Assembly (NCBI GenBank): GCA_030611265.1
Contig: JAUWQD010000016.1
Location: forward strand, 1 to 51,178
DNA length: 51,178 nucleotides
Direction: 5' to 3'
Origin: Methanosarcinaceae archaeon
GTDB lineage: Archaea > Halobacteriota > Methanosarcinia > Methanosarcinales > Methanosarcinaceae
Shown piece after piece: positions 2,930 through 18,802 of this stretch (position 1 is the stretch's first letter; each line of letters opens with the position of its first letter). The notes under the pieces are model-generated. The model did no database searches and had not been told where the DNA came from. It was given only the letters and a program-made list of their open reading frames with translations. A program made the translations under genes and the position numbers.

Positions 2930-2946
2930 TTTTTAAGTGCCATGAA

Positions 2947-3882
2947 TTAAATCGAAGATAAGACATTTGAGATGTGCGGAAAATAGGTTTTAATGTTGGT
3001 ATTAAATGTCTTTACCTGTCGTTTTTTAGTCGCTTTAGATTGAATCAATACCCATTTTTGTTCCATTCCACCATATGACGATGTCGTTTCATAATACGAG
3101 TATCGCTTATCTGTACAAAATTCTAATTCAACATCTGTATTCTGAAGATCTTTAACTTCATTTATTGTCGCAGGCGGTCTTGTGATCCAAAGAGTTTTTT
3201 TCCCTAACTCGGTGATGTTCTTATCACTGTAAATTGCACTATCAGCAATGTGGTACACTTTTTCATCCAATTCAAGACTATTCTGTATTTTCTTGACAGT
3301 TTTTACTAATGTTGTTTTATCAGGAGCATTTCCCGAAAGAGTTTCTACAAAAAGCGGTATACCTTCCTGATTACACACCATGCCCAGTACAAAACGTTTC
3401 AGATCCCATCGATAATCTTTAGGGTGGCCATAAGTAATCTCAATGGTATTGAGTTCAGGATCACGATTCTCGTAATTTCCATATAGGCTGAAATTGGTTG
3501 TGTCGTTGTGCAGAATATGGTTGTCAAGTGGAACGTTTTTCATAGCTTTGAGAACGATCTTGTTGAAAAGTTCAGTACAACCGTGTTCATATATTTTATC
3601 AAGTGTTCTTCCAAGAACGTCGTCGTTTATGTGTTCCGGGAGAATGCCTTCTCCCAATAATCGTTCTGTTGGGAGGTTTTCAAAATAGTCAGAATAAAGG
3701 TACAGGCGGCTTTCGTTGAAGCCTAAACCATTCAAACACATGGCTTTGATTACTGTGGAATGGGATAAATTGTATTTTCGACTTTTTGGGATGTTGGCAT
3801 CGATTACATCTGCAATATCAAGTTCGTCAAACGTTCCGCTAACTAATCCTAAATGTGATAGTGTTGTAGTTGTTATGTCCAT
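2947..3882 (-). pseudogene. truncated IS1634-like transposase (N-terminal 311 aa only)
   Basis: N-terminal region is homologous to the 1220..2929 product (HNDTTNFSLYGNY, IYHIADSAIY). The C-terminal half is missing. It ends 18 nt from the stop of the convergent intact transposase. Confidence 0.55.
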
Positions 3883-4017
3883 CAGTTGTTCATCCCCTCA
3901 GATGAGTTTACTGATGAAATGGAGGAAGTTGATTAAAAAGATTCACTTTTGTGATTTACCTGCGGAAAGTGCGGTGCATGTACAAGTTACTTTATCGGAA
4001 TCGAAGGGCGCAACATT

Positions 4018-4248
4018 TTGATAACAAAATACCTCAAAATTGGCGAACGTGAAATACAAAAATCAGAGCAAATGTTTACCAAATATGGACCATATGCACT
4101 ATTATTTACATGGCTTCCCGGAATTGGAGATGCGCTCACTGTTGTGAGTGGCATTCTCAAATATCGCTTTGATTTGTTCACGCTCTTTGTTTTCACAGGC
4201 AAATTTTTAAGATATTTTGCAGTTGCATACCTTGTGTATCTTTACTGA
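4018..4248 (+). pseudogene. 3' fragment of YqaA/DedA-family membrane protein gene
   Basis: Product aligns with the C-terminal half of E. coli YqaA (KYGPYALLFTWLPGIGDALTVVSGILKY...FLRYFAVA). The N-terminal half is absent and replaced by IS sequence. Confidence 0.5.
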
Positions 4249-4280
4249 GATATCTTGAGATTGCAGAGAATATATTTGCC

Positions 4281-6518
4281 TCACAACTTTGCTCCGCACT
4301 CAAGGCAAAACTTTTCATTAACATCTACATCTCTGCCGCAGTTCGGACACTTCTTCACATCCGTACCTGTGCCAATATTTGATCGCTGTACAAGCGAATC
4401 CTTCACCTGCGTTCCGATGTTGTCACCATAGTGATAGAAGTTCTGCACGATACTGTCATTAATGTATCCTTTGACCTGCACGCGCTTTTCCAGTTCATCC
4501 AGTATTCCGTGATAAAATCCAGTCAGTGCATCCTCACGCTCTGCCCATGCTTTGAGTATGAGTTTTGATCTCTTTGCACCGCCAACGACCTCGATCTGCG
4601 CGGCGTATTTCAATTCCTTGACACCTTCGCCGTAGAAGCGCGCCACGCCGTTGAACATCTGAGGTGTAGACGTGACCTCAGGTTCGAGTATGAACATATT
4701 CATATCCTCGATGACTCTTGACACCAAGTTGAATAACGTCTCGCTTGGCATTGAAATATCCTGCGTGGTCTCCTCGGTTTTAACAAGGTGGTTGACTATG
4801 TTTCTCCATTCGGTTTTGTTTATCTCTTTGACCCTGAGAAGTGGACAGACTATACTGAGGGACTTTATTTCAAGGTCGGTCTCCTGACGTTTCTTGGTGC
4901 TGTAATCATAATAGTTTACCCTGCCGGAAACATTACATTCGCCGCATTCGCCGGTAGGTCTTATCTCAAAGGTAACTGTCTTGCTCTCACCCGGCTCAAG
5001 CATAGAGATGGTTTTTTCCTTATTTTCCAGAAGGAAAACGTCAGGTACGAACAGATGGATTTTAATGTCGCCGATTGGGTCAGAGGTTGGGTTTTTGATC
5101 TTGATCTTGTGGATGATCGTTGCGCCTTTGTAGCCGAAGGCGGATGATGTGTTAATTCTGCTTTCTTCTTTTGATTTAATTGTGTCTACGGGCGTTGTAC
5201 TTTTTGTAGGAGCTTTCGTGATTTTAGCTGTGGTTTGAGATACTGTTTTGCTGGATGAAGATGCAGATTTTTTTTTCTTTCTTGCTACAACTACAACCAG
5301 AAAGAGCAGCAACAAGAACAAAATTCCACAAGCGGCTAATAAAATTGGATCAGGGGAGAGATTTGCAGAAACCGATGCAGTCATACCTGAACTCACGGTT
5401 ACTGTTTTAGATAAGTCAGTATAACCTGATTTTGTTAATTTGATGGTATATGAACCAACCGGGATATTTTTTAGAGTTATAGGTGTAATCCCTTTGGATG
5501 TTCCATCGAGGTAAACATTTGTGCCGCTTGGATTTGAAGATATACTGATAGAACCAGTTTGTGCAGTCAATGTTGTAGAAACCGATGCAGTCTTACCTGA
5601 ACTCACTGTTACTGATTTCGAGATGTCAGTGTAACCAGATTTTGTTAATTTGACTGTATGCGAACCTATTGGAACATTGTGTAACGTTATCGGTGTAGTT
5701 CCTTTGGATGTGCCATCAAGGTAAACATTTGCACCACTTGGATTTGAAGATACACTGATGGAACCAGTCTGAGCAATTAGTGATTCTGAAAACGAAATTG
5801 TTTGTCCTGAAATTATAGTTACTGTTTTTAAAATGTCATTGTAACCTGACTTTGTTAATTTAACAGTGTGTGAACCAATTGGAATATCTATTAGGGTAGA
5901 TGATGTAATTCCCTTGGATGTTCCGTCGAAATAGATATTTGCACCACTTGGATTCGACATAATCGAAATCGATCCTTCTGCAATTGTTGGTCTTTTATCA
6001 ACATCATCACGTTTACCATCACCATCTGTATCAGGGTTGTTAGGATCGGTTTTCAAATCTTCAACTTCTACATAATAGGGCAAGTTGTCATGATCGTAAT
6101 CAGACACTTCTTCTACTGAATAACAACGACGCGTTTCAATTACAGTATCAAGTAATTCATTAGTAGCTGGCCATGTCCAATCTATATAGAGACGGTAATA
6201 GAATGTTCTTGGACCTGAGTCACCCATCGTTGATGTATATGCAACCTTTTTAGTTTCTCCAGCTTCGAGCAAAAACTCTATTGTATGAACCAGTCCAGAT
6301 GAACTTTTAACATCGACCTGATAATTAAGTGAATTTGTTCCAGTATTTTTTACTGTAACTTCATATGTTACAGTTTGTCCACTTACTAAAATGTCTGGTT
6401 TTGAATTTGCACTGATAATTTCACCGTCGTTTTTTGCGGCTACTGGAGTACAGAACAGTAAAACTATAATTAGACAAGCTATTAATAATAGCATCCATTT
6501 CGTTTTTATTTTTGCCAT
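4281..6518 (-). CDS. surface protein with signal peptide, CARDB-like and thrombospondin-3-like segments and 3 PEGA repeats; single TM; cytoplasmic CARDB-like plus unknown domain; C-terminal zinc ribbon
   Basis: Signal peptide MAKIKTKWMLLLIACLIIVLL. Three PEGA-like repeats of about 69 aa. TM helix followed by RKKKK. C-terminus ends HYGDNIGTQVKDSLVQRSNIG...CPNCGRDVDVNEKFCLECGAKL. Confidence 0.8.
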   Translation of the reverse strand: MAKIKTKWMLLLIACLIIVLLFCTPVAAKNDGEIISANSKPDILVSGQTVTYEVTVKNTGTNSLNYQVDVKSSSGLVHTIEFLLEAGETKKVAYTSTMGDSGPRTFYYRLYIDWTWPATNELLDTVIETRRCYSVEEVSDYDHDNLPYYVEVEDLKTDPNNPDTDGDGKRDDVDKRPTIAEGSISIMSNPSGANIYFDGTSKGITSSTLIDIPIGSHTVKLTKSGYNDILKTVTIISGQTISFSESLIAQTGSISVSSNPSGANVYLDGTSKGTTPITLHNVPIGSHTVKLTKSGYTDISKSVTVSSGKTASVSTTLTAQTGSISISSNPSGTNVYLDGTSKGITPITLKNIPVGSYTIKLTKSGYTDLSKTVTVSSGMTASVSANLSPDPILLAACGILFLLLLFLVVVVARKKKKSASSSSKTVSQTTAKITKAPTKSTTPVDTIKSKEESRINTSSAFGYKGATIIHKIKIKNPTSDPIGDIKIHLFVPDVFLLENKEKTISMLEPGESKTVTFEIRPTGECGECNVSGRVNYYDYSTKKRQETDLEIKSLSIVCPLLRVKEINKTEWRNIVNHLVKTEETTQDISMPSETLFNLVSRVIEDMNMFILEPEVTSTPQMFNGVARFYGEGVKELKYAAQIEVVGGAKRSKLILKAWAEREDALTGFYHGILDELEKRVQVKGYINDSIVQNFYHYGDNIGTQVKDSLVQRSNIGTGTDVKKCPNCGRDVDVNEKFCLECGAKL
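5348..5978. repeat. three tandem ~207-bp intragenic repeats encoding PEGA domains
   Basis: DNA-level near-repeats (e.g. aaccgatgcagtc(a/t)tacctgaactcac(g/t)gttactg...) encoding the SIS(V/I)SSNPSG(A/T)NVYLDGTSKG repeats. Confidence 0.6.
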
Positions 6519-6562
6519 GTAATCAAGTATTCAAATACAGTTATTAGATATTATAATTTACC

Positions 6563-7855
6563 TCAAACCTTCATCCCACACTCCCCACAAAACTTAGCCC
6601 CACTCCGAACCGTCGCCCCGCACTCAGCACACTTCACAACATCAGCAGACACCTTACCCTGCGCCGCTCCCATCATCCCGGCATCCAGTTCCTGCCGCCT
6701 GTATGAATCAGCACGCTCCCTGTCCTCCACATCCATCATGAACTGTACCTTATCTTCCTTAGCTCGTGCCTCAGCTTCCTTCATCTTTGCGAGGGCTTCG
6801 ATCTGCTCAGAAGACATGCCGCTAAGTTCACGACCCTGCACAATCGTGTTGGCAACATCCGCGCCGCCTGTTTCGGTAACCGATTTCAGATACTCCATGT
6901 CGCGTCCATGTTTTCGATCACTCATATCTTCATCAAGTTCCATCTCTGCACGTTTTGCGTCCGTCTTGGAATCTTTCCATGACTTGAATGTATCAATAGC
7001 CTGCCGTGCTTCTGCTGCATCCGCTTCGTTTTCGATAGCCGATCTTTCAGCCTCATGGCGCGCATCCTTTACCATCTCGGCGCGGTCATGTTCGCTCATC
7101 GCAGATTCGGGTGCAATGCCGCTTCTGACCTTTGCAACATCTTCACGCCCCATGCGTTCATGATCGCCTTCAGCGGCAAGAGTGTCTATTTCCTTAAGCT
7201 CCTCTTCATTCTGGAATTTATTTGTTGCATCCAAAACGGAAACATAGTCGCCAAGGTCCCACTGTGCTGTATATCGAAGCAGTTCAAGTCCCCACATGGA
7301 AAGCGTTGTCTTGAGTTGCATCTCAAGTTCATTCTCCATCTTAAGCTGGAGGTCACGGTTGCCGTAGATATTATCCATGGTCACTTGCTTAATTTCAGGT
7401 TCCAGTACCCGTGAGATCGTCTCGCTCTCAAGGCGGCCATATATATCCTGAATAGAAAGCACTCGCCCTCCCTTTTCATCGGGAGTTGTGTAAGCAAAAA
7501 GCATCTGGAAGAAACGCTTTGGGTCTTGCATCTTGAAACGCATAATTCCGCTGCATCCGACCTTCTGGTTGTCGGCTGTCCACAGGTCGGCATGTTCCCA
7601 ATCGAGATCCTTTGGGGATGTGTCCATTAGTGCAACATCCACATCCTTTGCTATGTTGCCCGGTTTGAGCAAACCGCCAACGCGCAGTTTTCCGCTATCG
7701 ATGATCTCTTGAACCACACCGTTTCTGATTATCGCAGCTTTTTCGTTTGGAGATAGTATCACTGATTTAAAAAATACTCCACTGACGTCTTTTTTAGAGA
7801 TTACTCTTGCAATATCATCAATTTGTTTCTTCCATTTGAATACCATATTTACCAC
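6563..7855 (-). CDS. SPFH/band-7 (flotillin-like) protein with charged coiled-coil region and C-terminal zinc ribbon
   Basis: N-terminal SPFH-like motifs (AAIIRNGVVQEI, TADNQKVGCSGIMRFKMQDPKRFF, SMWGLELLRY). Long E/R/K/A-rich helical region. Ends KCAECGATVRSGAKFCGECGMKV. Confidence 0.7.
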   Translation of the reverse strand: MVNMVFKWKKQIDDIARVISKKDVSGVFFKSVILSPNEKAAIIRNGVVQEIIDSGKLRVGGLLKPGNIAKDVDVALMDTSPKDLDWEHADLWTADNQKVGCSGIMRFKMQDPKRFFQMLFAYTTPDEKGGRVLSIQDIYGRLESETISRVLEPEIKQVTMDNIYGNRDLQLKMENELEMQLKTTLSMWGLELLRYTAQWDLGDYVSVLDATNKFQNEEELKEIDTLAAEGDHERMGREDVAKVRSGIAPESAMSEHDRAEMVKDARHEAERSAIENEADAAEARQAIDTFKSWKDSKTDAKRAEMELDEDMSDRKHGRDMEYLKSVTETGGADVANTIVQGRELSGMSSEQIEALAKMKEAEARAKEDKVQFMMDVEDRERADSYRRQELDAGMMGAAQGKVSADVVKCAECGATVRSGAKFCGECGMKV

Positions 7856-7938
7856 ATCCGAACACTTTTATATTTACATAACTAATAGTTTTGTTGCTGT
7901 TACAATATATTAGTAAGTATTATATATATTGTTTTCCA

Positions 7939-7968
7939 TTGTATACAATCGTAATACATATTATGTAT
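7939..7968. promoter_or_regulatory. palindromic candidate operator in divergent promoter region (TTGTATACAA and ATACATA-t-TATGTAT)
   Basis: Perfect 10-bp palindrome at 7939-7948 and a 7-bp inverted repeat at 7954-7968, in the 129-bp AT-rich intergenic region between divergent genes. Confidence 0.4.
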
Positions 7969-7984
7969 ATTCGGCGGAGATTAA

Positions 7985-8140
7985 ATGAAACGATCCTATG
8001 CAGTTAGTGCACGAGTATCAGAAGATAGTAAATTATACCTTGATAAGTTGGTTGAGAGAGGGATAGCGATCAACAAATCTGAAGCATTGAAATTATGTAT
8101 AAGGTATGCCAAGCAAATGAAAATGGAGGAGGAGATATAA
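7985..8140 (+). CDS. small ribbon-helix-helix (CopG/Arc-like) DNA-binding protein
   Basis: 51-aa ORF MKRSYAVSARVSEDSKLYLDKLVERGIAINKSEALKLCIRYAKQMKMEEEI. N-terminal beta-strand then two helices, as in RHH proteins. Stop abuts the ATG of the next gene. Not in the ORF track because it is under 60 aa. Confidence 0.5.
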   Translation: MKRSYAVSARVSEDSKLYLDKLVERGIAINKSEALKLCIRYAKQMKMEEEI

Positions 8141-8704
8141 ATGGGACTAAGTAATCCATTCAAAAAAGTTTCACCGGATGAAATGAAGACAAAACTTTCT
8201 ATGTCCGAGCAGAGATTATCCACACGCGAGAGGGAACTTGATAAAAAACGCCAAAAAGCACGCGATCAGGCAAAGGAAGCGCTTGCAAACGGAAATGACC
8301 GCGAGTTTCGGGTCGCATCCCGCAGGCATTCTATGGTCGAGGGGCAGGTTAATACAATCAGCAGCATGGTTGAAATGGCGCAGTCCATGTCAGATGTTAT
8401 TGAGATGCAGAGCGGACTCAAAGAGGTTGTTGATATTGGAAATGACCTTGGCAAGTGGCAAAAACAACTCGGATTTGACACAAGCAAGTTAGAGGGCGCA
8501 GTTACCAACATCCGCACTTCGATGGAAAAAGTGAATACCGCAACCAACATGATGACCAGTTCAATGGATGCAGCCATGGGCGGCGGAACTGAACTCAGCG
8601 ACATGCAGGATTCCCTCAGGAGTGAACTGCTTGCAGAGCTTAGCAGTGACACAGTATCTGATGACAAGTTGTCAAAAAAGATCGAAGAAGAGATGGAAGA
8701 GTGA
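8141..8704 (+). CDS. ESCRT-III / Snf7-family (CHMP2-like) protein
   Basis: 187 aa. Aligns along its length with CHMP2A-type ESCRT-III (FKKVSPDEMKTKL...ERELDKKRQKARDQAKEALANGNDREFRVASRR...SSMDAAMGGG). C-terminal amphipathic acidic helix DMQDSLRSELLAELS is MIM1-like. GGAGG ribosome-binding site upstream. Confidence 0.75.
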   Translation: MGLSNPFKKVSPDEMKTKLSMSEQRLSTRERELDKKRQKARDQAKEALANGNDREFRVASRRHSMVEGQVNTISSMVEMAQSMSDVIEMQSGLKEVVDIGNDLGKWQKQLGFDTSKLEGAVTNIRTSMEKVNTATNMMTSSMDAAMGGGTELSDMQDSLRSELLAELSSDTVSDDKLSKKIEEEMEE

Positions 8705-8901
8705 ATTAGTGTTTTGGATGATTTGATTCATCCAATACTCTGCGGTTAATTAAAAAAAAATTGATCACTGGAATTTTGTCAATTTTCTTTGTGTCTTTCT
8801 TTGTTCTCTGTGTTTTTTCGAAAAGTTCACGACATAATAAAAATAAATTTGAATTCCAGCAATGATATTATGATTACTGTAGTAGATTAATGAGGAATCC
8901 C

Positions 8902-10077
8902 ATGCCATCAGCAACAACCCTTGCCGCACAAGCACGCGGGTATGCAAAAGCTGCCAGAACATTGGAAGATGAGAACAATCTCAAAAATGCCCGTGAACTC
9001 TACCTCAAGGCAGCCAAGTTATACAATGATGCATCCAAGATCTCAACCGATAAGACTGATACCAACACCCAGCGCGACCTTGCTGAGCATCTTCTCAACA
9101 AAGCACAATCGCTTAAACGTACCAGTGTCCACCAGTCAGGCTCTGGTGTGAGCAGTAGAGATGGTGGTGGAGGCAGTGAAACGGACGAGTCTTCACTGTC
9201 AAAGGACGACCTGATCTTAAAAGAGATCCCGAACATAGGGTTCGATGATATTGGCGGTCTTGAATCTGTGAAAGAGGAGATCAAAAAAGCGATCATCTAC
9301 CCGTTCACCCACAAAGACCTGTATAAGATGTATGGACAGAAAGCAGGCGAGGGAATTCTCCTCTACGGTCCACCGGGATGCGGCAAGACGATGATGGCAA
9401 AGGCTGCTGCAAAGGAATGCGGCGCGGATTTCATTAGCGTCAAGACAAGCAGCATTGTGAGTAAGTGGGTCGGTGCGTCCGAGAAGAACGTCAAACAGGT
9501 GTTTGAGACCGCACGCCAGTCCGAAAAAAGCATTGTCTTTTTCGATGAGATAGATTCCATTGCCGGACGGCGCAGTGAGAGTGAGGACTACGCCAAGCGC
9601 GTGGTAAACGAACTCCTCGCCCAGATGGACGGCGTTGATACAGCCGATGACGAACTCCTGATACTTGCAGCAACCAACGAGCCGTGGGCAATTGACCCTG
9701 CACTCCGCCGCCCCGGGAGGTTTAGTAAACTTGTGTACATTCCCGAACCTGATCTCGATGCCCGCGCTGCGATCTTCAAGATTAATATGAAAGGGCGCCC
9801 GATTGCTGATGATGTTAACGTGAACCGACTTGCCGAGATCACAGAATCCTATTCCGGTGCGGACATTTCCGCTATCTGCAAAGAGGCGGCGGATATCCCC
9901 CTTGGTGAGGCACTTCGCGGTGGCGAGGCTCGGAAGATCGAGGAGCGAGATTTTGTTAAGGTGCTGAAAGGGAGGAAGCCTTCAATTTTGAGCTGGTATG
10001 TTGAGGCTCGGAAGGAGGTTAAGAAGAGTGGGGAAGAAGCTGTGTTTGATGGGATTGTTAAAAGCAGGGTTGATTAG
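8902..10077 (+). CDS. Vps4/CdvC-like MIT-domain AAA+ ATPase
   Basis: N-terminal roughly 75-aa three-helix MIT-like region. Linker, then AAA domain with Walker A GPPGCGKT, Walker B VFFDEID and ATNEPWAIDPALRRPGRF. Start taken at the ATG at 8902 (GAGGA ribosome-binding site 5 nt upstream) rather than 8890. Confidence 0.8.
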   Translation: MPSATTLAAQARGYAKAARTLEDENNLKNARELYLKAAKLYNDASKISTDKTDTNTQRDLAEHLLNKAQSLKRTSVHQSGSGVSSRDGGGGSETDESSLSKDDLILKEIPNIGFDDIGGLESVKEEIKKAIIYPFTHKDLYKMYGQKAGEGILLYGPPGCGKTMMAKAAAKECGADFISVKTSSIVSKWVGASEKNVKQVFETARQSEKSIVFFDEIDSIAGRRSESEDYAKRVVNELLAQMDGVDTADDELLILAATNEPWAIDPALRRPGRFSKLVYIPEPDLDARAAIFKINMKGRPIADDVNVNRLAEITESYSGADISAICKEAADIPLGEALRGGEARKIEERDFVKVLKGRKPSILSWYVEARKEVKKSGEEAVFDGIVKSRVD

Positions 10078-10080
10078 AAG

Positions 10081-12531
10081 ATGGGAATTGATGTAAAAAA
10101 ATCGAAATCCGAAGAAAATTTGGGTATTGGTTTAAGCACTGGAGCAATTGTAGGATTTATTATTGGTTTTATTGTAAGAACAATTGCTTTTAAAATATCA
10201 GTTGGATTAATTGTAGGATTAATTTGTAGTATAATTGCTAGTAATATTAGTGTTGATAGAAAAAATAGTCCACTATACGGTTTGGTTTTTGGTTCAATAA
10301 TTGGCGCCGTTTTGGGTTTATTTTTTGGATTGATTTTAGGATCAGTTTTTGATGTCATATATAATTTCAATTCAATAGTGTTTACTAATCTAATTTTAGG
10401 AGGGATTGTTGGCGGATATACAATCTTTAAAATATTTTACGACGCTAAAAAAAGAACAATTGAATATGAAAATGAAATTAGTGACAATATTGACATAAAT
10501 ATTGACTCTCAAAATCCATTTATACTTGGTGTCAATAATTCATTTGAAATAACAGTAAATAATGGAACTGAAATCCCAATTACAAATATTAGTCTAATAT
10601 CAAATTTTCCAAATTCCTTGATTTGCAATGAAACTCTTAAACCAATAGACATAGTTCCTGCGAAATCATCAGAATCAAAAACTCTTTTATTAACTCCAAC
10701 AGTTGCTGAAGAAATCGATTTGGGCAACCTTGCAGTGACACTTGAAATTGACGGTTATACTTATGAAAAAGAACCTGTTAAAATCGGTATTTTTGATGTG
10801 ATTCCACCTGAAATTAACATTCAAATAAATGTCCCCAATCAACTTAAAGTCGGAATAGAAAATCCAGTTAAAATTACAGTGAAAAATCAATCGGATGTAC
10901 TTCTATCCAATGTTCAAATTGAAACCAACTTTTCAAGACTAATAACATGTGATGAAACTATAGTGCACACTGATGATATCCCTGCAAATTCATCTGAATA
11001 CACAGCCATATTCATAACTCCAAGAATTGCTGATAAAATTGATTTGGGCAACCTCAATTTATCATTTGACATTAATGAAACCACATACAAAAAAGAACCA
11101 ATCGCAATGGGAATTTATGAAGCAGTAGAAGTAACATCACATAAACCCACAAAATATTCAGATGACATCAATTCAGACCTTTCGATATCCCGCGAAACCG
11201 AATTCTATCAAGGTTTTATCCGCTTCAAAATGTCTGTCACCAACACTTCATCCTTTGTAGTGAACGATGTTGCTCTCGATTTTGATTATGATCACAACTT
11301 ATTGCGAATTGATAGACGTGAACCTGATTACCAGATCAAAAATGGTAGAACAATATTTGGAAACATCTCATCCAATTCATCAAAAACGATTGCAGTCTAC
11401 TTTGACCCAATGATGTGTTCTAAAAGTGCAGATATCAACTGTCAGGTAAATTACAAGGATGCAAAAGGACAACCTCAAACTACACACATGGAGCCAAAAA
11501 AGATCAGTGTTGTTTGTCCGATAATGGAAACTGAATCTGATATAAACATCGGACGGCTCAAAGAGTTTATTGAAAAACTGTCATATCGGGACAGTAAAGT
11601 GTACCAAATTCAGAATAGTTTTGATATTGATGTGCTAAAAAACATTTCCCGGGAAATTGTGCAAAAGCATGATGTTAAGCATATACGGACGCTTTTCACT
11701 AAAGATGGAAACACATGCGAAATATGGTATTATGGCAAGACAAAAGTGCATAGCCATGATATTGTCATAAAAATTACAATTTTAAGTGAAACACAAAACA
11801 TTGAACTTTTTGCTGCAACTCAAACCGTGGAATCACTGGCCGGACTTCTGGCAGAGGTTGGGCGTGAGTTGAAAGGTGCGATTGAAAGTAAGGTTACTGG
11901 CAATGTCCAGCAGGTAATCAATGTTTCAATCAAGGATTCAATTATCCAGCGAAGTAATCTTTTGAGTTATTGTGATATTAACGGTAATTGCAGTGGTGAT
12001 GTTGTAATTGAAGATAGTTTTGTGCAGCGTTCGGATGTAGGCACTGTTAAATCTGAAAATGAAGACGGAGTAAAAGATATGGATAAATCTAAAGTACACG
12101 AATATTTAGTTAGTATCGTAAAAGATGGATCAAATATTGAAGATATCAAGATCGAATACGGCCAAGTTATAGAGTATTTTAATCTTGATGAGAAAAAAGC
12201 TATTTTCCCATTGCTTACCATACTTGATGAAATTTGTAGCGAAAATCATCACAAAAATGAGCCCTTTTTATCTGCGATTGTAGTAAGTCAAAGCAAAAAA
12301 GGACTTGTACGCATTCCTGGACCAGGTTTTTTTAAAAAATGGATGGTACCACCATATAGAGATTATGATGGTCCGTCCGATGGTCCAGAAGCCCACAAAA
12401 TCCACGAACAAGAACTTGAACGTGTGTTTAACTACTGGCACAACGACAATAAAAACTCATGCCCTGCATGCGGTGAGATCGTGCCGGATGGTGCGAAGTT
12501 CTGCATGGAATGCGGTACAAAAATTGAATAA
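10081..12531 (+). CDS. polytopic membrane protein with glycine-zipper TM helices, two ~110-aa Ig-like repeats, CARDB-like plus unknown domain, C-terminal zinc ribbon
   Basis: Four predicted TM helices rich in GxxxG. Tandem repeats (ITVNNGTEIPITNISLISNF... / ITVKNQSDVLLSNVQIETNF...). The module VNYKD...ISVVCPIM is homologous to the cytoplasmic module of the 4281..6518 product. Ends CPACGEIVPDGAKFCMECGTKIE. Confidence 0.8.
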   Translation: MGIDVKKSKSEENLGIGLSTGAIVGFIIGFIVRTIAFKISVGLIVGLICSIIASNISVDRKNSPLYGLVFGSIIGAVLGLFFGLILGSVFDVIYNFNSIVFTNLILGGIVGGYTIFKIFYDAKKRTIEYENEISDNIDINIDSQNPFILGVNNSFEITVNNGTEIPITNISLISNFPNSLICNETLKPIDIVPAKSSESKTLLLTPTVAEEIDLGNLAVTLEIDGYTYEKEPVKIGIFDVIPPEINIQINVPNQLKVGIENPVKITVKNQSDVLLSNVQIETNFSRLITCDETIVHTDDIPANSSEYTAIFITPRIADKIDLGNLNLSFDINETTYKKEPIAMGIYEAVEVTSHKPTKYSDDINSDLSISRETEFYQGFIRFKMSVTNTSSFVVNDVALDFDYDHNLLRIDRREPDYQIKNGRTIFGNISSNSSKTIAVYFDPMMCSKSADINCQVNYKDAKGQPQTTHMEPKKISVVCPIMETESDINIGRLKEFIEKLSYRDSKVYQIQNSFDIDVLKNISREIVQKHDVKHIRTLFTKDGNTCEIWYYGKTKVHSHDIVIKITILSETQNIELFAATQTVESLAGLLAEVGRELKGAIESKVTGNVQQVINVSIKDSIIQRSNLLSYCDINGNCSGDVVIEDSFVQRSDVGTVKSENEDGVKDMDKSKVHEYLVSIVKDGSNIEDIKIEYGQVIEYFNLDEKKAIFPLLTILDEICSENHHKNEPFLSAIVVSQSKKGLVRIPGPGFFKKWMVPPYRDYDGPSDGPEAHKIHEQELERVFNYWHNDNKNSCPACGEIVPDGAKFCMECGTKIE

Positions 12532-12567
12532 TACAACGATTTATCAACGACAGTGGTGAGTGAAAAT

Positions 12568-13422
12568 ATGGCATATACCAACCAATCAAAAGTCAATAAA
12601 GACTTAAATGAGTTCTTGCGTGAACTGAGCAGTGGAAGTTACAGAACACGTACAAGCGCCGCAATAAATATGTCAGTACTTGCTAAAAAAGGTGTTTACC
12701 ATAATAATGCTATCCAACCACTTGTCGATTTGTTGTCTGATAAGTATAAATCGGTGCGAAAGCAGGCGGCTTTTGCACTTGGAGATATTGCAGAATGTGG
12801 AGTTTGGGACAAAAATGCGATAATACCATTAAAGGAACTATTATCTGACAAAGATCATGAAGTGCGATGGAGTGCGACTTTTGCACTAAGGACACTTGCT
12901 AAAAATGATATTTTTGAACGCAACGCAATACAATGCTTTGAAAAATTATTGTTTGACAGATATCACCGTGTACGCTATAATGCTGCATTTGCACTTGGTG
13001 CTCTTGCAGAGCATGAAATTTGTTCTAAGTCTACACTATACCCTTTAATCACTTTATTAGCTGACCGCAACAGTATGGTACGTAGAAGTGCTGCTTTTTC
13101 AATTGGTTGTCTTGCAAATAATGATATCTTTGATTGTGTTGCCGTCAAACCATTGACTTATTTGCTGTCAGATAAGAATCATGTTGTCCGCAAAAATGCT
13201 GCACAGGCACTTACAGTGCTGAACGAGAAGGGTGCAGGCAGGGTCAATGAAAAGAATATGGTGCAACACATTCACTACGGAGATAACATTGGTACGCAGG
13301 TAAAAGATAGTTTTGTCTATAAATCCAGCATTAATGATGCTGCCAAAACGTGTCCTTCATGCGGACGCGAAGTTGGAGAGGATGAGCAATTTTGTACGGA
13401 ATGCGGGGAGAGATTAATATGA
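12568..13422 (+). CDS. HEAT-repeat (PBS-lyase-like) protein with C-terminal zinc ribbon
   Basis: Six repeats of the type PLxxLLSDKxxxVRxxAAFALGxxA. Ends HYGDNIGTQVKDSFVYKSSI...CPSCGREVGEDEQFCTECGERLI. Start taken at the ATG at 12568 with a GGTGA ribosome-binding site. Confidence 0.75.
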   Translation: MAYTNQSKVNKDLNEFLRELSSGSYRTRTSAAINMSVLAKKGVYHNNAIQPLVDLLSDKYKSVRKQAAFALGDIAECGVWDKNAIIPLKELLSDKDHEVRWSATFALRTLAKNDIFERNAIQCFEKLLFDRYHRVRYNAAFALGALAEHEICSKSTLYPLITLLADRNSMVRRSAAFSIGCLANNDIFDCVAVKPLTYLLSDKNHVVRKNAAQALTVLNEKGAGRVNEKNMVQHIHYGDNIGTQVKDSFVYKSSINDAAKTCPSCGREVGEDEQFCTECGERLI

Positions 13423-14603
13423 CCGACAACGAAACCGACCCAACGACCCTCCAGCAAACAAACCGCCAGACCGCAATCAACAACCTGCGAGATACGCATG
13501 CTGCAATTGAAAGACTGATGAATAAAACCTATCAGCAGCAGGATGTAACTGCAAGTTCAGCACTCCGCCAGATCAGGACAAAGGTAACTGCGCTGCTTTC
13601 AGACATGGAGAACATAGATCTCGATACATTCAGCGGACGGGAGGGGACACTGGATGAGTTCTACAACAATGAGGGACGTTTCATCGAAAGCTCAACCGGA
13701 CTGCTAATAACAGCCGAAGATGCTTTGGAGTCAAGCGAATCAGTCGATACATATTCAATCGAAAGTTCAGTCGATTCACTGGAGAAGAACTTCAACAACC
13801 GTATCGTCATCACAAAAAAGCATTTACAAGAAGATGAAAAACGACAAACAGAATCCCAGTCCCGGAAAGAAACGCCGGACAAGGAACTGGGCAGCAGCGC
13901 GCCGGATGCAGAACCAAAAACCGAATCGCCCGCGTGGCTTGATGATACAACTAAAGATTACGCATCATTAATACCAAAACTCTACAACTATATCAACACC
14001 CTTGAACAAAAATACACTCACTGTCAGCCTGAAGTTTCAAACAACGGTGATTATCTTGGAAACAAGACATGGAAAGTCGATCTCCTTGATTACGGTATTC
14101 GCGGCACAGTCAAAGATGGGGCATTCAAAATACCGCTTGTTTTTGAAACATGCTGGTACCCATTAAACAGTGTGCTGGAAGCCGCACAGTTTGTGCAGTC
14201 GCAGGCGAATGCGGTTGGCAAAAGCCAGTACAAGAGCCTGTGTCTTATCAACGATGTATGGAACAATGAAATCAAGGAGTGGGCTAAAGATTTTGTTCAT
14301 CAGCGCATGTCGCTGTTCTTGTATGAACTGGAAAATGACACGCTCACCTATAAAGACAAATCAGAAATCACAGAACGGTTCGAGTTCTGGCATTCCAATA
14401 CTATATTTAAAGCACCTATTGAAGAGGAGATGAAAATTCTTATCGAGAAAATGGAATATCTCACGGTAAATGATGTCATGGGAATGTTTGGGTTCAATAC
14501 AAAAGGAGCAGAGGCGTATCTCTATGACCTGATGAAAAAAGGAGAGATCCTTGACGTTGGGCTTGACAGTCCAAAATATACGAAGGTTAAACATCGTGAA
14601 TAG
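13419..14603 (+). CDS. hypothetical protein: coiled-coil N-terminus, acidic disordered middle, C-terminal winged-helix-like region
   Basis: 395-aa product. ATGA overlap with the upstream gene stop implies translational coupling. The C-terminal roughly 55 aa have a helix-turn-helix plus wing pattern. Confidence 0.6.
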   Translation: MTDNETDPTTLQQTNRQTAINNLRDTHAAIERLMNKTYQQQDVTASSALRQIRTKVTALLSDMENIDLDTFSGREGTLDEFYNNEGRFIESSTGLLITAEDALESSESVDTYSIESSVDSLEKNFNNRIVITKKHLQEDEKRQTESQSRKETPDKELGSSAPDAEPKTESPAWLDDTTKDYASLIPKLYNYINTLEQKYTHCQPEVSNNGDYLGNKTWKVDLLDYGIRGTVKDGAFKIPLVFETCWYPLNSVLEAAQFVQSQANAVGKSQYKSLCLINDVWNNEIKEWAKDFVHQRMSLFLYELENDTLTYKDKSEITERFEFWHSNTIFKAPIEEEMKILIEKMEYLTVNDVMGMFGFNTKGAEAYLYDLMKKGEILDVGLDSPKYTKVKHRE

Positions 14604-14681
14604 TAGTGGAAAATCATGCAAGAATTCAATGACTAATGACTACACATAAAATAATATCATATTCACGTTTGGTAGAATATT

Positions 14682-14972
14682 ATGTCCCTCACTGTTAATA
14701 TCAAAAATGAATTTTCCATACAGGAAGTAAGCGAAGTAATACACTCAGCATTAGCATTATATGAGCAGATCACAAAACACAAAAAAGGAAAATATGCAAA
14801 TATTTGCAGTGGTTTTGAAACTAAATATGGGATGAGTTCAGACATTTTCATGGAAAAATTTGAAATCGGTCAATTAGATGACCGTGATGATTTTTTTGAT
14901 TGGCATGCATCCAAAAAAGGACTTGATAACTGGAGTGAAAAGTTACAAATTTTATCAGGGATTAGCACATGA
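14682..14972 (+). CDS. hypothetical small protein
   Basis: 96-aa ORF downstream of the cluster. No recognisable motifs. Confidence 0.4.
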   Translation: MSLTVNIKNEFSIQEVSEVIHSALALYEQITKHKKGKYANICSGFETKYGMSSDIFMEKFEIGQLDDRDDFFDWHASKKGLDNWSEKLQILSGIST

Positions 14973-15173
14973 CCGTCCGTGAATACTATTCTCAAATTGA
15001 AGAAACTATCAAGGATTTTCAATCATTTTTCCATTGATTTTGATGAAATTATAGACTGATTCTAATTGCATTCCAGAAATGCACCCACACAAACAATATA
15101 AGACCGTACCAACATAACTACATCAGTTGCATCAAACACAACATATCATTACCAACTTCAAGGATGTGAAACA

Positions 15174-15842
15174 ATCAAGATACTTGCCATTTCTGACGCT
15201 CATGGAGACTATTCCAAAGTTGGACCTACCTTAAAACTGAAGCAGGTCAACGACATTGACTTGATCCTTATAGCAGGTGATATCACAGACTTCGGTCCGG
15301 ATGAATATGCAAAAAAGTTGTTAAACATGTTTAAAACACCCATAATGGCAATACCCGGAAACTGTGATCCAAAAACCATGCTCAAGGTACTGGACAATTC
15401 AAAAGCCATCAACCTTCACAACACATCCGAACACATCGGCAATATCACATTCATCGGTCTTGGAGGCTCGAATCCGACACCATTCGACACACCATTTGAA
15501 TTACAGGAAGATGAGATCGAAAGTAATCTTGAAAAATTGATCACGGAAGCGGAAAATGATCCAGACAACAGCACGATCGTACTGCTAACCCATGCGCCGC
15601 CATTTGGCACCGTTGACGAGATACCAATTGGACATGTCGGAAGCACTGCCATTGAGAAGTTTTTAGGTAGAGTTGACCTGATTGTCTGCGGGCACATTCA
15701 TGAAGCAAGAGGCATAATGAAAGTTGGCAAAACCGTTGTCGTAAATCCGGGAATGGTCTCTGAAGGTAATGGGGCAATAATAACCATAGCCGATGCAGGC
15801 AATGGAAACGTACAGATGAATGCTGAACTGATAAAAGCGTAA
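15174..15842 (+). CDS. calcineurin-like metallophosphoesterase, apparently lacking a canonical start codon
   Basis: Motif I ILAISDAHGD and motif II LIAGDITD lie upstream of the first in-frame ATG, GTG or TTG (the TTG at 15261). The position where M is expected in MKILAISD reads ATC at 15174. An AGGATGTGA ribosome-binding-like sequence is upstream. Confidence 0.55.
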   Translation: MKILAISDAHGDYSKVGPTLKLKQVNDIDLILIAGDITDFGPDEYAKKLLNMFKTPIMAIPGNCDPKTMLKVLDNSKAINLHNTSEHIGNITFIGLGGSNPTPFDTPFELQEDEIESNLEKLITEAENDPDNSTIVLLTHAPPFGTVDEIPIGHVGSTAIEKFLGRVDLIVCGHIHEARGIMKVGKTVVVNPGMVSEGNGAIITIADAGNGNVQMNAELIKA

Positions 15843-15942
15843 GACGTATAAAATTGACAAAAAGAGGGTTTGGGGGACAAACACAACGAACTGGATAAAC
15901 TATATTGGGCTCGATCCTGTATCAATTGATTTTCTCCAGAAA

Positions 15943-17181
15943 TTGGGATTGTCGTTTCTGATTGGGATTTTAATCGGCATCGAGCGAGAGCATCAAAGAG
16001 TGAGTAAAAAAATATTCGCTGGTGTCAGGACATTTGCCCTCGCATGTATAATCGGTATGATCGCAACGTTTACATCAGAACTGGCAGGTATTGAGATCCT
16101 GATCATCACTGCAGTATTTTTTGCGTTTTTATGTGCTACAATCGCATATGCGGCGAACATTGTTTATGAACAACCTGGCATAACAAGTCCGATCGCCCTT
16201 TTTTGCACCTTCCTGCTTGGAATACTGGTAGCCATGGATTACTATCTATTTGCGATCGTTGGTGCAGTCGTACTGACATTCCTATTGATCGAAAAAAAGC
16301 CGCTACATTCTTTTGCAGAACATCTCTCGGACAAAGAGATACTAAACGCCGTTCAATTTCTTGCAGTAGCATTCATCCTGTATCCAATCATGCCGGATGA
16401 GACGTTTTTTGGAATTGTGAACCCAAGATCTGCAATTTTGATCGTAGTACTTGTGTCATTGATAAGCTTTTCCAGCTACGTTTCCCTGAAAAAGTTCGGG
16501 ACAAAGGGAGGAATATCCTATTCAGGGCTGCTTGGCGGTTTTGTGAATAGCGAAGCAACAACAGGCGCTCTTTCTTCCATGTCAAAAAATCGACCTAACC
16601 TGACAAATGCGACTTACACAGGGATATTATTGTCCAATACTGCAATGCTGATCAGGAATTTGGTAATTGCCTTAATTGTAGACCCAAGCGGCAGGTTTGC
16701 ACTTTTGATGCTGCCACCGCAATTAATAATCATACTTGCCTCGTCGTTTATCGCCCTGATCAAAAGAGAATCATTCGACATCACCAATGAAACGCTTCAG
16801 ATCAATTCACCATTTGCACTTGGTCCGGCTTTTAAGTTTGGTGCAGGTTTCACCATAATCCTGATCATTGCAACAATTGCAAACGATGTTGCAGGTCCGA
16901 TTGGAATATACGCAATGGCACTTGGAGGATTTGTCAGCAGTGCAGCTGTCACAGTATCAATGGCAACACTTGCAGTCAATGGTAGCATATCGTTTTCGAC
17001 CGCAGCACAGGCAGCTGTTCTTGCAAGCATAGTTAGCACGTCTGCAAAGGTAGCATTAATAAAGATGTCAGGTTCTAATGAATTGTTTGTGCGAGCAAGG
17101 AATACGTTTGTGCTACTTGTTCTCATCGGAGCGGTCGCACTTGCAGGATGGAGCTATTACAGGCATCTGGGCGTATTTTGA
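15943..17181 (+). CDS. MgtC/SapB-family membrane protein with DUF4010-like C-terminal domain
   Basis: N-terminal IGILIGIEREHQ motif typical of MgtC-family proteins. Hydrophobic over its whole length. TTG start. Confidence 0.6.
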   Translation: MGLSFLIGILIGIEREHQRVSKKIFAGVRTFALACIIGMIATFTSELAGIEILIITAVFFAFLCATIAYAANIVYEQPGITSPIALFCTFLLGILVAMDYYLFAIVGAVVLTFLLIEKKPLHSFAEHLSDKEILNAVQFLAVAFILYPIMPDETFFGIVNPRSAILIVVLVSLISFSSYVSLKKFGTKGGISYSGLLGGFVNSEATTGALSSMSKNRPNLTNATYTGILLSNTAMLIRNLVIALIVDPSGRFALLMLPPQLIIILASSFIALIKRESFDITNETLQINSPFALGPAFKFGAGFTIILIIATIANDVAGPIGIYAMALGGFVSSAAVTVSMATLAVNGSISFSTAAQAAVLASIVSTSAKVALIKMSGSNELFVRARNTFVLLVLIGAVALAGWSYYRHLGVF

Positions 17182-17219
17182 TGCTCTTGTGGGATTGTCG
17201 GGTTTGATCTAAGGAGGAT

Positions 17220-18266
17220 TTGGAAATTATGGATTTTCAACTTATCTGGTTTGATTCCATGGGTGCAAAATCATCTTCCACCCTTGTAACAACGCCTGAC
17301 ACAAGTATACTCATCGATCCGGGCGCAGCCATCATGCAACCAACCTTTCCATTGCAACCATTTGAAAAGTGGCAATATCTCGAAATGGCAAAAGAAAGTA
17401 TTAAAAATGCTTCCGCCAAAACGGAACACGTGGTAATCAGCCATTATCATTACGACCATTTCACAATCGGCGAAGATGCCAGTGTGTTATACAAAAACAA
17501 GACCCTCTGGATAAAGGACCCAAATCGCTGGATCAATATGTCCCAGTGGGACCGTTCGAGAGAGTTTCTGAAGTGGTTGGCAAAACTTGAAGGCAGGCGT
17601 TTGCAATATACAAGACCCAAACAGACAAACTTTGTTGACCCTATTGAAGATATTCCAATTGCAAGATCGAAAAACTATGGGAATTATCAGGATCGAAGAG
17701 AAGAATTGCTCAAAAAATGGCAAAAACGTTTTTTAAAAATGCGGGAACACTGGACAAAGTTCCCCTGGGTTGATGAAACTTTAGAAGGGATACATTTTGC
17801 AGACGGTGCTTCTTTTCAGACGGGTGATACGAAAATACGTTTCTCACGTCCGCTTTTTCACGGTATCGAATATGCAAACACCGGATGGGTCATTTCCACT
17901 ATTATTGAACACGGGGATGACAAACTCATTCATACATCTGATCTGCAGGGTCCCACGATCGAGGACCATGCCAAATGGATAATTGATGAGAATCCGAATA
18001 TATTGATAGCAGACGGACCCGCCACCTACCTGCTCGGGTACATGCTCAACACCACTAACTTGAATCGCAGTATCGAAAATGCAGTGCGGATCATTGAGGA
18101 ATGCGATCTTGATGTGATGATATATGACCATCATTTGCTGCGCGACCCACTGTATAAGCAACGGACATCTAAAATATGGGACTGTGCCGAAGACATGGGA
18201 GTAATGGTCACGACCGCCGCAGAATACAATGGCATTGAGCCTGTGGTTTTAAATGTATCAGTATGA
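17220..18266 (+). CDS. metallo-beta-lactamase-fold hydrolase
   Basis: HxHxDH motif (VISHYHYDHFT), with aspartate and histidine residues downstream. Confidence 0.7.
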   Translation: MEIMDFQLIWFDSMGAKSSSTLVTTPDTSILIDPGAAIMQPTFPLQPFEKWQYLEMAKESIKNASAKTEHVVISHYHYDHFTIGEDASVLYKNKTLWIKDPNRWINMSQWDRSREFLKWLAKLEGRRLQYTRPKQTNFVDPIEDIPIARSKNYGNYQDRREELLKKWQKRFLKMREHWTKFPWVDETLEGIHFADGASFQTGDTKIRFSRPLFHGIEYANTGWVISTIIEHGDDKLIHTSDLQGPTIEDHAKWIIDENPNILIADGPATYLLGYMLNTTNLNRSIENAVRIIEECDLDVMIYDHHLLRDPLYKQRTSKIWDCAEDMGVMVTTAAEYNGIEPVVLNVSV

Positions 18267-18770: not shown

Positions 18771-18802
18771 TCCAAATACCAAATTTTACAAATATGATAT
18801 AA

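Follow-up and report, generated by a model that had tools for sequence, protein, structure and literature searches.

A conserved ESCRT-like gene cluster of the Meth_adaptin class in a Methanosarcinaceae archaeon related to ANME-3

Gene content and layout of the cluster

We analyzed a stretch of 51,178 nucleotides from a Methanosarcinaceae archaeon (contig JAUWQD010000016.1; hereafter the window, to whose positions all coordinates refer), in which an earlier note, made from the sequence alone, had pointed to nine open reading frames (ORFs) as a candidate ESCRT-like membrane-remodeling cluster. All nine were found, with coordinates that deviate at start codons only; eight form a conserved system, and the ninth (14682-14972) lies outside it. 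The proposal of a dedicated membrane-remodeling machine, made up of an ESCRT-III-like protein, an MIT-AAA ATPase, an SPFH protein and membrane proteins, was supported by profile searches, structure prediction and synteny. The locus belongs to the Meth_adaptin class among the euryarchaeal systems, as its gene content and order match those of the M. methylutens and Methanosalsum zhilinae loci; the kind is thus already known, from computation only (Makarova et al. 2024, mBio 15:e00335-24; PMC10936438).

The SPFH gene and a plus-strand operon diverge from a single 129-bp region. On the minus strand lies the gene of an SPFH (Band 7)/coiled-coil/Zn-ribbon protein (6563-7855), starting at GTG 7855 (430 aa) or, likelier, at ATG 7846 (427 aa, the gene call of the source contig); it is followed by that of a type-I membrane adaptor or receptor of 745 aa with PEGA and CARDB domains and a cytoplasmic tail (4281-6518), an arrangement that had been described before and that agrees with matches to Band_7 (above threshold), PEGA and CARDB and with hydropathy. 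The plus strand carries, in order, a TATA-plus-palindrome promoter/operator element predicted from its conservation across loci (7918-7948), the gene of a probable ribbon-helix-helix (RHH) protein of 51 aa (7985-8140), that of an ESCRT-III-like protein of 187 aa (8141-8704), a hairpin with T-rich tracts (8714-8820), and the genes of an MIT-AAA ATPase of 391 aa (8902-10077), a probable membrane-anchored cytoplasmic adaptor of 816 aa (10081-12531), a HEAT-repeat/Zn-ribbon protein of 289 aa (12553-13422) and a coiled-coil/globular/winged-helix (wH) protein of 394 aa (13419-14603). No nucleotide separates the stop codon of the RHH gene (8138-8140) from the ATG of the ESCRT-III gene at 8141, as had been noticed, and three nucleotides separate the ATPase stop from the start of the adaptor gene. 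For the ATPase, the longest ORF begins at 8890; the start at 8902 is favored by orthologue alignment and by the gene call of the source contig. The HEAT gene may start at GTG 12553 or ATG 12568, and the wH gene at TTG 13392 or ATG 13419, the latter (which gives 394 aa) overlapping the HEAT stop as ATGA.

The same neighborhood was examined in 43 related loci (labeled L001 and so on), nearly all from Methanosarcinales and obtained by a scan with the ESCRT-III family alignment at one genome per species, with gene order taken from tblastn and ORF mapping. Homologues of the system genes, whose co-localization the earlier note had put forward for checking, stand together in ~35 of the 43: genes for an appendage-Zn-ribbon protein and an SPFH-Zn-ribbon protein run in one direction, and those for the RHH, ESCRT-III, ATPase, (transmembrane adaptor) and wH proteins in the other. 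As this arrangement recurs in so many loci of different species, the co-localization is not due to chance. The ESCRT-III gene is directly upstream of the MIT-AAA ATPase gene in the window and in ~33 related loci. The ESCRT-III-like protein's homologues occur almost only in Methanosarcinales; a profile search of 1.84 billion representative proteins returned 83 clusters at E <= 1e-3.

The ESCRT-III-like protein and the MIT-AAA ATPase

The 187-aa protein is, to judge from its sequence, probably a member of the ESCRT-III superfamily. The Snf7 profile (PF03357), which had been suggested as a check, did match it nearly over its full length (E 2.7e-4, profile positions 3-157 of 171), but at 21.1 bits the match falls below the 27.3-bit threshold (thresholds in the Pfam scans of the window proteins are Pfam's own family cut-offs), and a sequence-profile search of the PDB with the family alignment found no ESCRT-III, only chance-level matches to toxins of the MakA/NheA type. 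The Snf7 match was consistent, yet sub-threshold, in 14 of 22 orthologues; three of 25 distant relatives pulled in by the family profile match Snf7 as well, the best at 1.2e-15, and thereby provide a transitive link of the family to Snf7. A structure model of the protein consists of five helices, for which Foldseek placed CdvB, Asgard ESCRT-IIIB, Vipp1 and CHMP1B at the top, and comparison of orthologues brought out a conserved N-terminal MGLxNPFKK motif and acidic/amphipathic C-terminal segments. Membership in the superfamily was accepted as probable on the Snf7 evidence together with the invariant pairing with the MIT-AAA ATPase.

The ATPase is composed of a divergent three-helix MIT domain, a Ser/Gly-rich linker, a single AAA cassette with its lid, and a C-terminal helix. 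Pfam AAA was matched at E 4.6e-45, together with AAA_lid_3. A Pfam scan of the full-length protein gave no MIT match; the isolated N-terminal ~80 residues matched MIT (PF04212) in 12 of 12 orthologues over profile positions 3-65 of 66, with E values of 1.4e-3 for the window protein, which stays under Pfam's 30-bit threshold, and 1.6e-6 for the best orthologue. Searched against the PDB, a profile of this domain found the MIT domain of calpain-7 (2e-3) and the MIT domains of VPS4B/SKD1 (0.12-0.85). The NCBIfam CdvC model aligns with residues 7-373, that is, with the full length, at 245 bits, the equivalog threshold being 650. A Vps4-like architecture is suggested by this end-to-end alignment and by the MIT match of the isolated N-terminus. 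The earlier designation of the enzyme as Vps4-like thus held for the MIT domain and the CdvC alignment, but not for the cassette, which is nearer to CDC48-D2 and PAN, nor for Vps4_C, which was not matched; on present sequence comparisons the ATPase is Vps4-like in domain layout and context, not in cassette similarity.

The gap between the ESCRT-III and ATPase genes measures 185 nt in the window versus ~50-80 nt in other loci, and L001 has a 53-codon ORF there. Reading of the sequence reveals a hairpin in this gap (8714-8721 pairing with 8728-8735), followed by T-rich tracts; a bacterial-type terminator scan did not call the hairpin at 8714-8735. As a speculation, hairpin and tracts might act as a partial terminator or attenuator that yields fewer ATPase than filament subunits. 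In one lineage of Methanosarcinales metagenome-assembled genomes (MAGs), a conserved pair of ORFs (159 aa; 185-192 aa) is located between the two genes (L030 10608-11622, L032 1441-2476, L037 10609-11629). The larger ORF is nucleotidyltransferase-like by eye, and the pair is probably an insertion of toxin-antitoxin type. Both ORFs were also considered as additional ESCRT-III paralogues and set aside, as they look unrelated by eye, no search having been run.

Adaptor proteins and their common tail

The 745-aa PEGA protein begins with a signal peptide, followed by CARDB and three PEGA domains outside the cell, a transmembrane segment (residues ~386-410, nt 5289-5363), an S/T/K-rich linker, an appendage-like region on the cytoplasmic side (residues ~455-690, nt 4449-5156) and, at the C-terminus, a KDS motif and a Zn ribbon (residues ~700-745, nt 4284-4421). 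Pfam matched PEGA three times (E 5.5e-56), CARDB (2e-8) and Zn_Ribbon_1 (2e-6), and hydropathy indicated the signal peptide and one transmembrane segment. Residues 455-700 were modeled with AlphaFold2 from 34 homologues at a mean confidence score (pLDDT) of 87; the model comprises strands over model residues 2-102 and then an alpha/beta unit at 114-223, an arrangement of beta-sandwich and platform. Its top 18 Foldseek matches in the PDB were the COPI gamma/beta and AP2 alpha/beta2 appendages and BBS9, with E values of 3.9e-10 to 2.4e-5. Alignments to 9qpq_H, 1pzd, 1e42 and 1w80 extend over ~235 columns at probability 1.00, with TM-scores of 0.30-0.39 that are low because the two subdomains are set at a different angle. 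Pfam adds a faint match to Coatomer_g_Cpla (E 0.065) at residues 563-645. The fold modeled for this cytoplasmic part of the PEGA protein is that of an adaptin/COPI appendage.

A related region is present in the 816-aa protein, residues 415-647 of which align to the appendage region of the PEGA protein (BLASTP E 2e-8); by homology to the modeled protein, it would carry an appendage-like region as well. This second adaptor had been described as a four-transmembrane protein, and it is a membrane protein, but hydropathy gives three to four segments. These are N-terminal and are followed by two Ig-like repeats, for which a Pfam scan of the isolated segment gave a weak Ig-like match, by the appendage-like region (residues ~370-620), two KDS motifs, a domain of ~130 aa and a Zn ribbon (Zn_Ribbon_1, 2.6e-7). 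The appendage-like region is placed in the cytoplasm on the grounds that it comes after the transmembrane segments and the two repeats. The ~130-aa domain (residues ~655-790, nt 12043-12450; FLSAIVVSQSKKGLVRIPGPGFFKKW) between the KDS motifs and the Zn ribbon has no Pfam match; it is present in L001 and absent from the shorter orthologues (~580 aa and ~420 aa) that occupy the position of this gene in Methanolobus loci.

Across ~30 loci the cytoplasmic part of the PEGA protein is conserved and its ectodomain varies. The N-terminal variants of the adaptors include one to four PEGA repeats, an S-layer domain, a beta-propeller, a DUF975 multi-transmembrane domain, or unknown sequence, and by this comparison the adaptors look like a modular receptor design, in which a variable ectodomain is joined to a constant cassette of appendage and tail. 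The membrane adaptor of L030 (12589-15045) has its transmembrane/Ig module replaced by an N-terminal beta-propeller (PQQ/WD40-like) and resembles the propeller-Ig adaptors of the haloarchaeal Halo_adaptin systems (Makarova et al. 2024, PMC10936438).

A C-terminal Zn ribbon is found on four proteins of the locus (PEGA, 816-aa, HEAT and SPFH) and, within the window, is unique to them; the SPFH protein has the ribbon only, without the KDS motif. The tails of the PEGA and HEAT proteins are 52% identical over 62 residues (E 4e-18) and read HYGDNIGTQVKDSxVxxSxI, then CPxCGxxV...KFCxECGxKL. The consensus of appendage and HEAT proteins is [IV]xDSx[IV]QRSxIG, then CPxCG...KFCxxCGxKL, and this tail is kept in all related loci examined. 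Such a distribution suggests that the KDS and Zn-ribbon tail may serve as a common docking or address module.

The HEAT protein matched Pfam HEAT at E 5.9e-32 along with Zn_Ribbon_1, and Adaptin_N at 49 bits (threshold 37), a score to be read in the knowledge that HEAT families cross-match. Among the related loci searched, full-length HEAT-Zn-ribbon orthologues are confined to L001, L031 and L033, and on this distribution the protein would be an accessory subunit of ANME-3-like and Methanoperedens-like lineages (ANME, anaerobic methanotrophic archaea). Its gene overlaps the wH gene in the window; in L001, ~4.4 kb with several small ORFs (6900-11326) separate the two.

The SPFH protein matched Band_7 at E 1.3e-8 (35.5 bits; threshold 23.6) and, at its C-terminus, Zn_Ribbon_1; it has a long charged coiled coil, and hydropathy gave no transmembrane segment (maximum 1.0). 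In ~35 loci its gene is present and points away from the operon, the Zn ribbon being there each time, and the orthologous family is arCOG15283 (Makarova et al. 2024, PMC10936438).

The wH protein, orthologues of which are present in ~30 loci, combines a helical/coiled-coil N-terminus, a conserved globular middle domain and a C-terminal winged helix. The earlier note had called it translationally coupled to the HEAT gene and winged-helix-like; the two genes overlap, and a profile of its C-terminal 63 residues matched winged-helix domains only, if weakly (SelB, AsnC, MarR; for one orthologue EAP30/Vps36). A Pfam scan of the isolated N-terminal and middle domains, and of the SPFH coiled coil, gave nothing significant. 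The N-terminus was tried as a second, CdvB-like ESCRT-III and rejected (hhalign probability 0.2%). The M. zhilinae orthologue is annotated as 'coiled-coil and C-terminal wHTH' in Table S2 of Makarova et al. (2024), who likened the wH domain of a similarly built protein of the main clade, arCOG09748, to Vps22/ESCRT-II (PMC10936438). With two appendage-like proteins and one coiled-coil/winged-helix protein assigned, the statement that most of the accessory genes could not be assigned to a known family no longer applies.

The RHH-like gene and the promoter element

In conservation the 51-aa RHH-like protein surpasses both the ATPase and the SPFH protein: its 17 orthologues have a mean identity of 83%, and its gene lies 0-3 nt upstream of the ESCRT-III gene in essentially every locus. 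The window protein matched RHH_1 at E 0.008 (16.6 bits, threshold 20.5). RHH_1 in 10 of the 17 orthologues (best E 0.0016) and RelB in six were the top matches, all sub-threshold, and a PDB profile search with the family alignment retrieved no RHH protein, only weak matches to the NF-YB histone fold. Its sequence and position make it a candidate for autoregulation of the operon.

Upstream of this gene is a conserved element, 7918-7948, which reads TATTATATATATTGTTTTCCATTGTATACA(A) in the window and has the 30-nt consensus TATTATATATA[AT]TGTTTTCCATTGTATACA. It consists of a TATA box (~7920-7928) and then a perfect palindrome, TTGTATACAA (7939-7948, center 7943/7944), ~40-65 nt upstream of the RHH start codon. 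In 28 of 31 loci of Methanosarcinaceae and Methanoperedenaceae it is kept at no fewer than 25 of its 30 positions, whereas the flanking intergenic DNA diverges, and it occurs once in the window. The palindrome sits where the transcription start is expected after an archaeal TATA box. We predict that the element is the promoter of the operon with a site for an autorepressor. A scan for bacterial sigma-70 promoters and terminators gave counts near the shuffle expectation and is uninformative for an archaeon. Variants of the element are found in the Methanomethylovorans loci L023, L024 and L027. In L022, ~1 kb with ORFs of 63 and 207 aa (~6250-7333) lies between the SPFH and RHH genes and has the element on both sides, i.e., duplicated.

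Host and neighboring genes

The closest genome is 'Methanovorans sp. HMMV2' (L001), with 84-91% nucleotide identity over the locus; it is an ANME-3 MAG (PMC12180501). The window encodes Mch. The host is a Methanosarcinaceae archaeon with a methanogenesis or reverse-methanogenesis pathway; its assumed identity as a methanogen does not necessarily follow, as its nearest relative, a methanotroph MAG, and Mch make it quite possibly a methanotroph itself.

At the right edge of the cluster, the 96-aa ORF at 14682-14972 had been counted as part of it; this ORF and a phosphoesterase gene downstream are present in none of the 43 related loci. The ORF matches PADLOC PDC-M44A and, at E 3e-5, the NCBIfam model of the TumA antitoxin; a stub of 22 codons comes next, with an ATGA overlap, so that the segment 14682-15060 looks like a degraded toxin-antitoxin or defense-candidate pair. 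The metallophosphoesterase gene (15177-15842) matches PADLOC PDC-S10 at E 2e-16. Its metal-binding motif ISDAHGD is in frame and upstream of the first canonical start (TTG 15261), which points to either a non-canonical start codon or damage at the 5' end. At the left edge, directly beside the PEGA gene, there are two convergent DUF4277 ORFs (1220-3882), a domain that we take to be the N-terminal one of IS-type transposases. The segment 43000-51178, possibly a foreign island, is low in GC (31-35% versus ~42% elsewhere) and encodes a TPR protein (46644-48089) as well as an AAA_14/DUF4143 ATPase (49745-51022).

Proposed function and alternative explanations

We consider it very probable that the locus encodes a chromosomally conserved, self-regulated ESCRT-like system of the Meth_adaptin class that remodels the cytoplasmic membrane, the likeliest outcome being outward budding or sorting of surface proteins, not division. 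In such a system, the RHH protein would repress the operon by binding to the palindrome, which would follow the TATA box and precede the transcription start. Once made, the ESCRT-III protein would polymerize at the inner face of the membrane, and the ATPase hexamer would grip its C-terminal tail through the MIT domain, driving filament turnover and scission; the RHH protein might, like the ESCRT-III protein, be a potential ligand of that domain. The SPFH oligomer would bound a membrane patch, to which the appendage and HEAT proteins could be recruited as adaptors or receptors through the common Zn-ribbon tail, with the wH protein bridging adaptors and ESCRT-III in the manner of ESCRT-II. Selected surface proteins would in this way be sorted, or budded outward into vesicles.

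Several observations weigh against this proposal. On the full-length ATPase, Vps4_C gave no Pfam match at E <= 0.1; the models of CDC48 (TIGR01243, 280.6 bits, residues 109-364) and PAN (251) outscore that of CdvC (245); the best PDB matches are all p97/CDC48/VAT, in the D2 cassette; and the second region of homology (SRH) has the motif RRPGRF (RRPGRFSK), invariant among the orthologues. RRPGRF is the form of the classic clade, whereas the Vps4/meiotic clade has the RRRFE type. The locus has a single ESCRT-III paralogue, where scission machines that are well studied employ several. In loci of the Methanoperedens type, the wH and HEAT genes are on the SPFH side, and the ATPase gene is distant or outside the examined stretch, not adjoining the ESCRT-III gene. 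The principal non-overlapping ORFs at 144-19984 have no Pfam match to ProX/OpuAC or GOLD/EMP24; these two appear to be accessory parts of M. zhilinae, not universal ones. The roles given above to the 51-aa protein, the shared tail and the wH protein are inferred throughout. The literature search, lastly, returned no follow-up on Meth_adaptin beyond the 2024 paper, no experiment on any member and nothing on ESCRT in ANME-3 papers; the earlier remark that ESCRT-III and Vps4 are not characterized in Methanosarcinales is hence right for experiments, but the class itself was recognized in 2024 (PMC10936438).

A serious rival, to which we give a minor but real chance, is a membrane-stress or repair system of the PspA/Vipp1 kind with an SPFH partner, in which the SPFH and Zn-ribbon proteins recruit the ESCRT-III-like protein, its coat seals damage, the ATPase recycles it, and the RHH repressor keeps the operon off until stress, with no vesicles or sorting involved. 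The single ESCRT-III paralogue fits this, as does the strongly conserved operator-like palindrome over the promoter, which suggests tight, inducible control, and Bacillus subtilis has the same triad of an ESCRT-III-superfamily protein, an SPFH-Zn-ribbon protein and Zn-ribbon membrane proteins (PMC11237479, PMC10936438). Yet the 187-aa protein matches Snf7 and not PspA_IM30 profiles, and the MIT-AAA ATPase, the appendage-like platforms whose ectodomains vary and the wH protein typify ESCRT systems of the sorting type and would be superfluous for simple repair. The nature of the cassette invites a different account, namely a CDC48/VAT-like unfoldase module for extraction or quality control of membrane proteins, with the 187-aa and Zn-ribbon proteins as substrate adaptors and no filament at all. 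The profile scores, the PDB matches and the classic-clade SRH motif all point that way, and ATPases of the sister 'Halo_adaptin' clade do have a VAT-type N-domain (PMC10936438). The CDC48/PAN-like cassette, though, agrees with the basal place of the clade in the published tree, beside those VAT-N-bearing ATPases, and in the tree of Makarova et al., for which Cdc48 served as outgroup, the orthologous ATPases (Meth_adaptin clade, arCOG01307) fall within Vps4 (PMC10936438). Moreover, the window protein couples an N-terminal MIT domain to one AAA cassette and lacks the double-psi barrel N-domain followed by D1 and D2; the CdvC model aligns with its full length, and it is always paired with a Snf7-like gene. 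On balance, we regard the unfoldase as improbable.

A Cdv-like machine for cytokinesis or abscission is more doubtful still and in our view very improbable. ESCRT-III and Vps4 (CdvB/CdvC) do divide TACK archaea, and in haloarchaea the gene of a small RHH regulator lies upstream of one for division (cdrS-ftsZ2), which we counted in its favor. However, Pfam and NCBIfam scans found no CdvA or PRC-barrel gene in the locus, the distribution is patchy and limited to some genera of Methanosarcinales, adaptors with variable ectodomains suit sorting better, and hosts of complex euryarchaeal ESCRT systems retain (mostly) complete FtsZ machinery (Makarova et al., PMC10936438). The flanks of the cluster raise the prospect of an anti-phage defense system or mobile island in which the AAA ATPase and Zn-ribbon proteins are incidental: there are the two transposase-like DUF4277 ORFs on one side and the matches of the two downstream genes to the candidate-defense models PDC-M44A and PDC-S10 on the other, and the ATPase itself matches IetA at 150 bits. 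That match is weaker than those to CDC48, PAN and CdvC, and no IetS protease accompanies it; the other seven proteins of the system have no specific defense-model match, the two PADLOC matches of the HEAT protein being to generic HEAT-repeat models; and the cluster stands in conserved chromosomal synteny across genera, from which the two defense-like genes are missing. The identity as a defense system was rejected, the PADLOC scan having returned only generic AAA (IetA, TRIP13) and HEAT matches, and we give the defense or mobile-island explanation next to no weight.

A bolder version of the sorting system, which we offer as a rather unlikely conjecture, is a 'split proto-adaptin' coat. Here the HEAT trunk and the appendages, on separate polypeptides with the common tail as an address tag, would dock with variable-ectodomain receptors on an SPFH-bounded patch, the ESCRT-III protein and MIT-AAA ATPase would pinch off vesicles, and the RHH protein would switch the operator. 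If true, it would represent a compact prokaryotic precursor of adaptor/COPI-type cargo selection coupled to ESCRT scission, operating in methane-cycling archaea (relatives of ANME-3 and ANME-2d) that live in tight consortia. The preferred reading, a Meth_adaptin system for budding or sorting, has its own interest, since the class ties ESCRT-III/Vps4 to adaptin-appendage and SPFH modules outside Asgard archaea and eukaryotes, and the window adds to it an ANME-3-related lineage. Among euryarchaeal systems, it is this class that has been proposed to come nearest in complexity to the ESCRT machinery which the last archaeal common ancestor had (Makarova et al., PMC10936438). The window also offers experimental handles: a probable repressor with its operator, the Zn-ribbon tail as a candidate recruitment signal, the modular receptors and the HEAT subunit. 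Strains of Methanolobus and Methanococcoides that are in culture carry orthologous loci, and in them knockouts, localization and vesicle proteomics may be feasible.

Comparison with known systems

Euryarchaeal ESCRT-III has been noted since 2010, as cited in PMC8281802. By comparative genomics, Makarova et al. (2024) distinguished five euryarchaeal Vps4 clades, one of them 'Meth_adaptin', for which their text names, beside Vps4 and ESCRT-III, an SPFH/coiled-coil/Zn-ribbon protein, ProX and two proteins with an adaptin appendage, of which one has a Zn ribbon and the other GOLD; in their Table S2, the locus of Methanosalsum zhilinae (MZHIL_RS06480-06510) has the SPFH gene (428 aa) divergent from ESCRT-III (190 aa), followed by Vps4 (393 aa), the coiled-coil and wHTH protein (399 aa) and an appendage protein (469 aa). 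Other members listed are Methanolobus, Methanococcoides and Methanohalophilus; the text says 'Methanobacteriales', yet the genomes listed are Methanosarcinales (PMC10936438). The window comes close to this locus in the sizes and order of its genes, and agrees with the class in the SPFH/coiled-coil/Zn-ribbon gene divergent from ESCRT-III, in the Vps4-like ATPase, the coiled-coil and wHTH protein and two appendage proteins (at least one with a Zn ribbon), and in its host order; its ESCRT-III-like protein is 73-84% identical to proteins of the listed genera, and the locus is collinear with those of Methanolobus and Methanococcoides.

The window differs in that the ectodomain consists of CARDB and three PEGA domains and the appendage is C-terminal, not N-terminal, to the transmembrane segment; that the second appendage protein has three to four transmembrane segments and extra Ig-like and ~130-aa domains; and that an extra HEAT-Zn-ribbon subunit is present, which is absent from the accessible part of the Meth_adaptin tables of the paper. 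The RHH-like gene is unmentioned in Makarova et al. (2024), and the corresponding gaps are empty in the locus tables of M. zhilinae and M. methylutens. Not in that paper are the RHH-like gene with its abutment on ESCRT-III, the 30-nt promoter/operator element, the KDS and Zn-ribbon tail, the HEAT-Zn-ribbon subunit, and the presence of the system in ANME-3-like hosts, to which that of the window is related, and Methanoperedens.

With the crenarchaeal CdvA/CdvB/CdvC and the eukaryotic and Asgard ESCRT-III-Vps4 systems, the locus shares an ESCRT-III-superfamily gene beside an ATPase with MIT and a single AAA cassette, and a winged-helix module, which there is the wH domain of CdvB or ESCRT-II and in the window a separate protein. 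Unlike them, it has no CdvA, ESCRT-I, ESCRT-II or ubiquitin components and a single ESCRT-III paralogue; its cassette is nearer to CDC48-D2/PAN, with RRPGRF in the SRH and a CdvC score of 245 versus 650 bits, and it has SPFH and appendage proteins in addition.

Encoded together with PspA in B. subtilis are a Band-7 protein that has a Zn ribbon at its C-terminus and a membrane protein with two Zn ribbons (PMC11237479), and the SPFH protein YdjI is required for the membrane localization of PspA (PMC10936438). The pspA-ydjGHI system, with YdjG as a Zn-ribbon protein, thus resembles the window in joining an ESCRT-III-superfamily protein to an SPFH-Zn-ribbon protein and Zn-ribbon membrane proteins; it differs in that PspA is of the PspA_IM30 and not the Snf7 type, and in having no MIT-AAA ATPase, appendage, HEAT or wH proteins.

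Compared with the large subunits of adaptor complexes and COPI, the window has HEAT and appendage on separate polypeptides, the appendage being fused to membrane proteins and a Zn ribbon; clathrin and the mu and sigma subunits are absent, and sequence-level Pfam support is faint. What the locus has in common with these subunits is the beta-sandwich-plus-platform appendage predicted for the PEGA protein and a HEAT protein encoded in the same operon.

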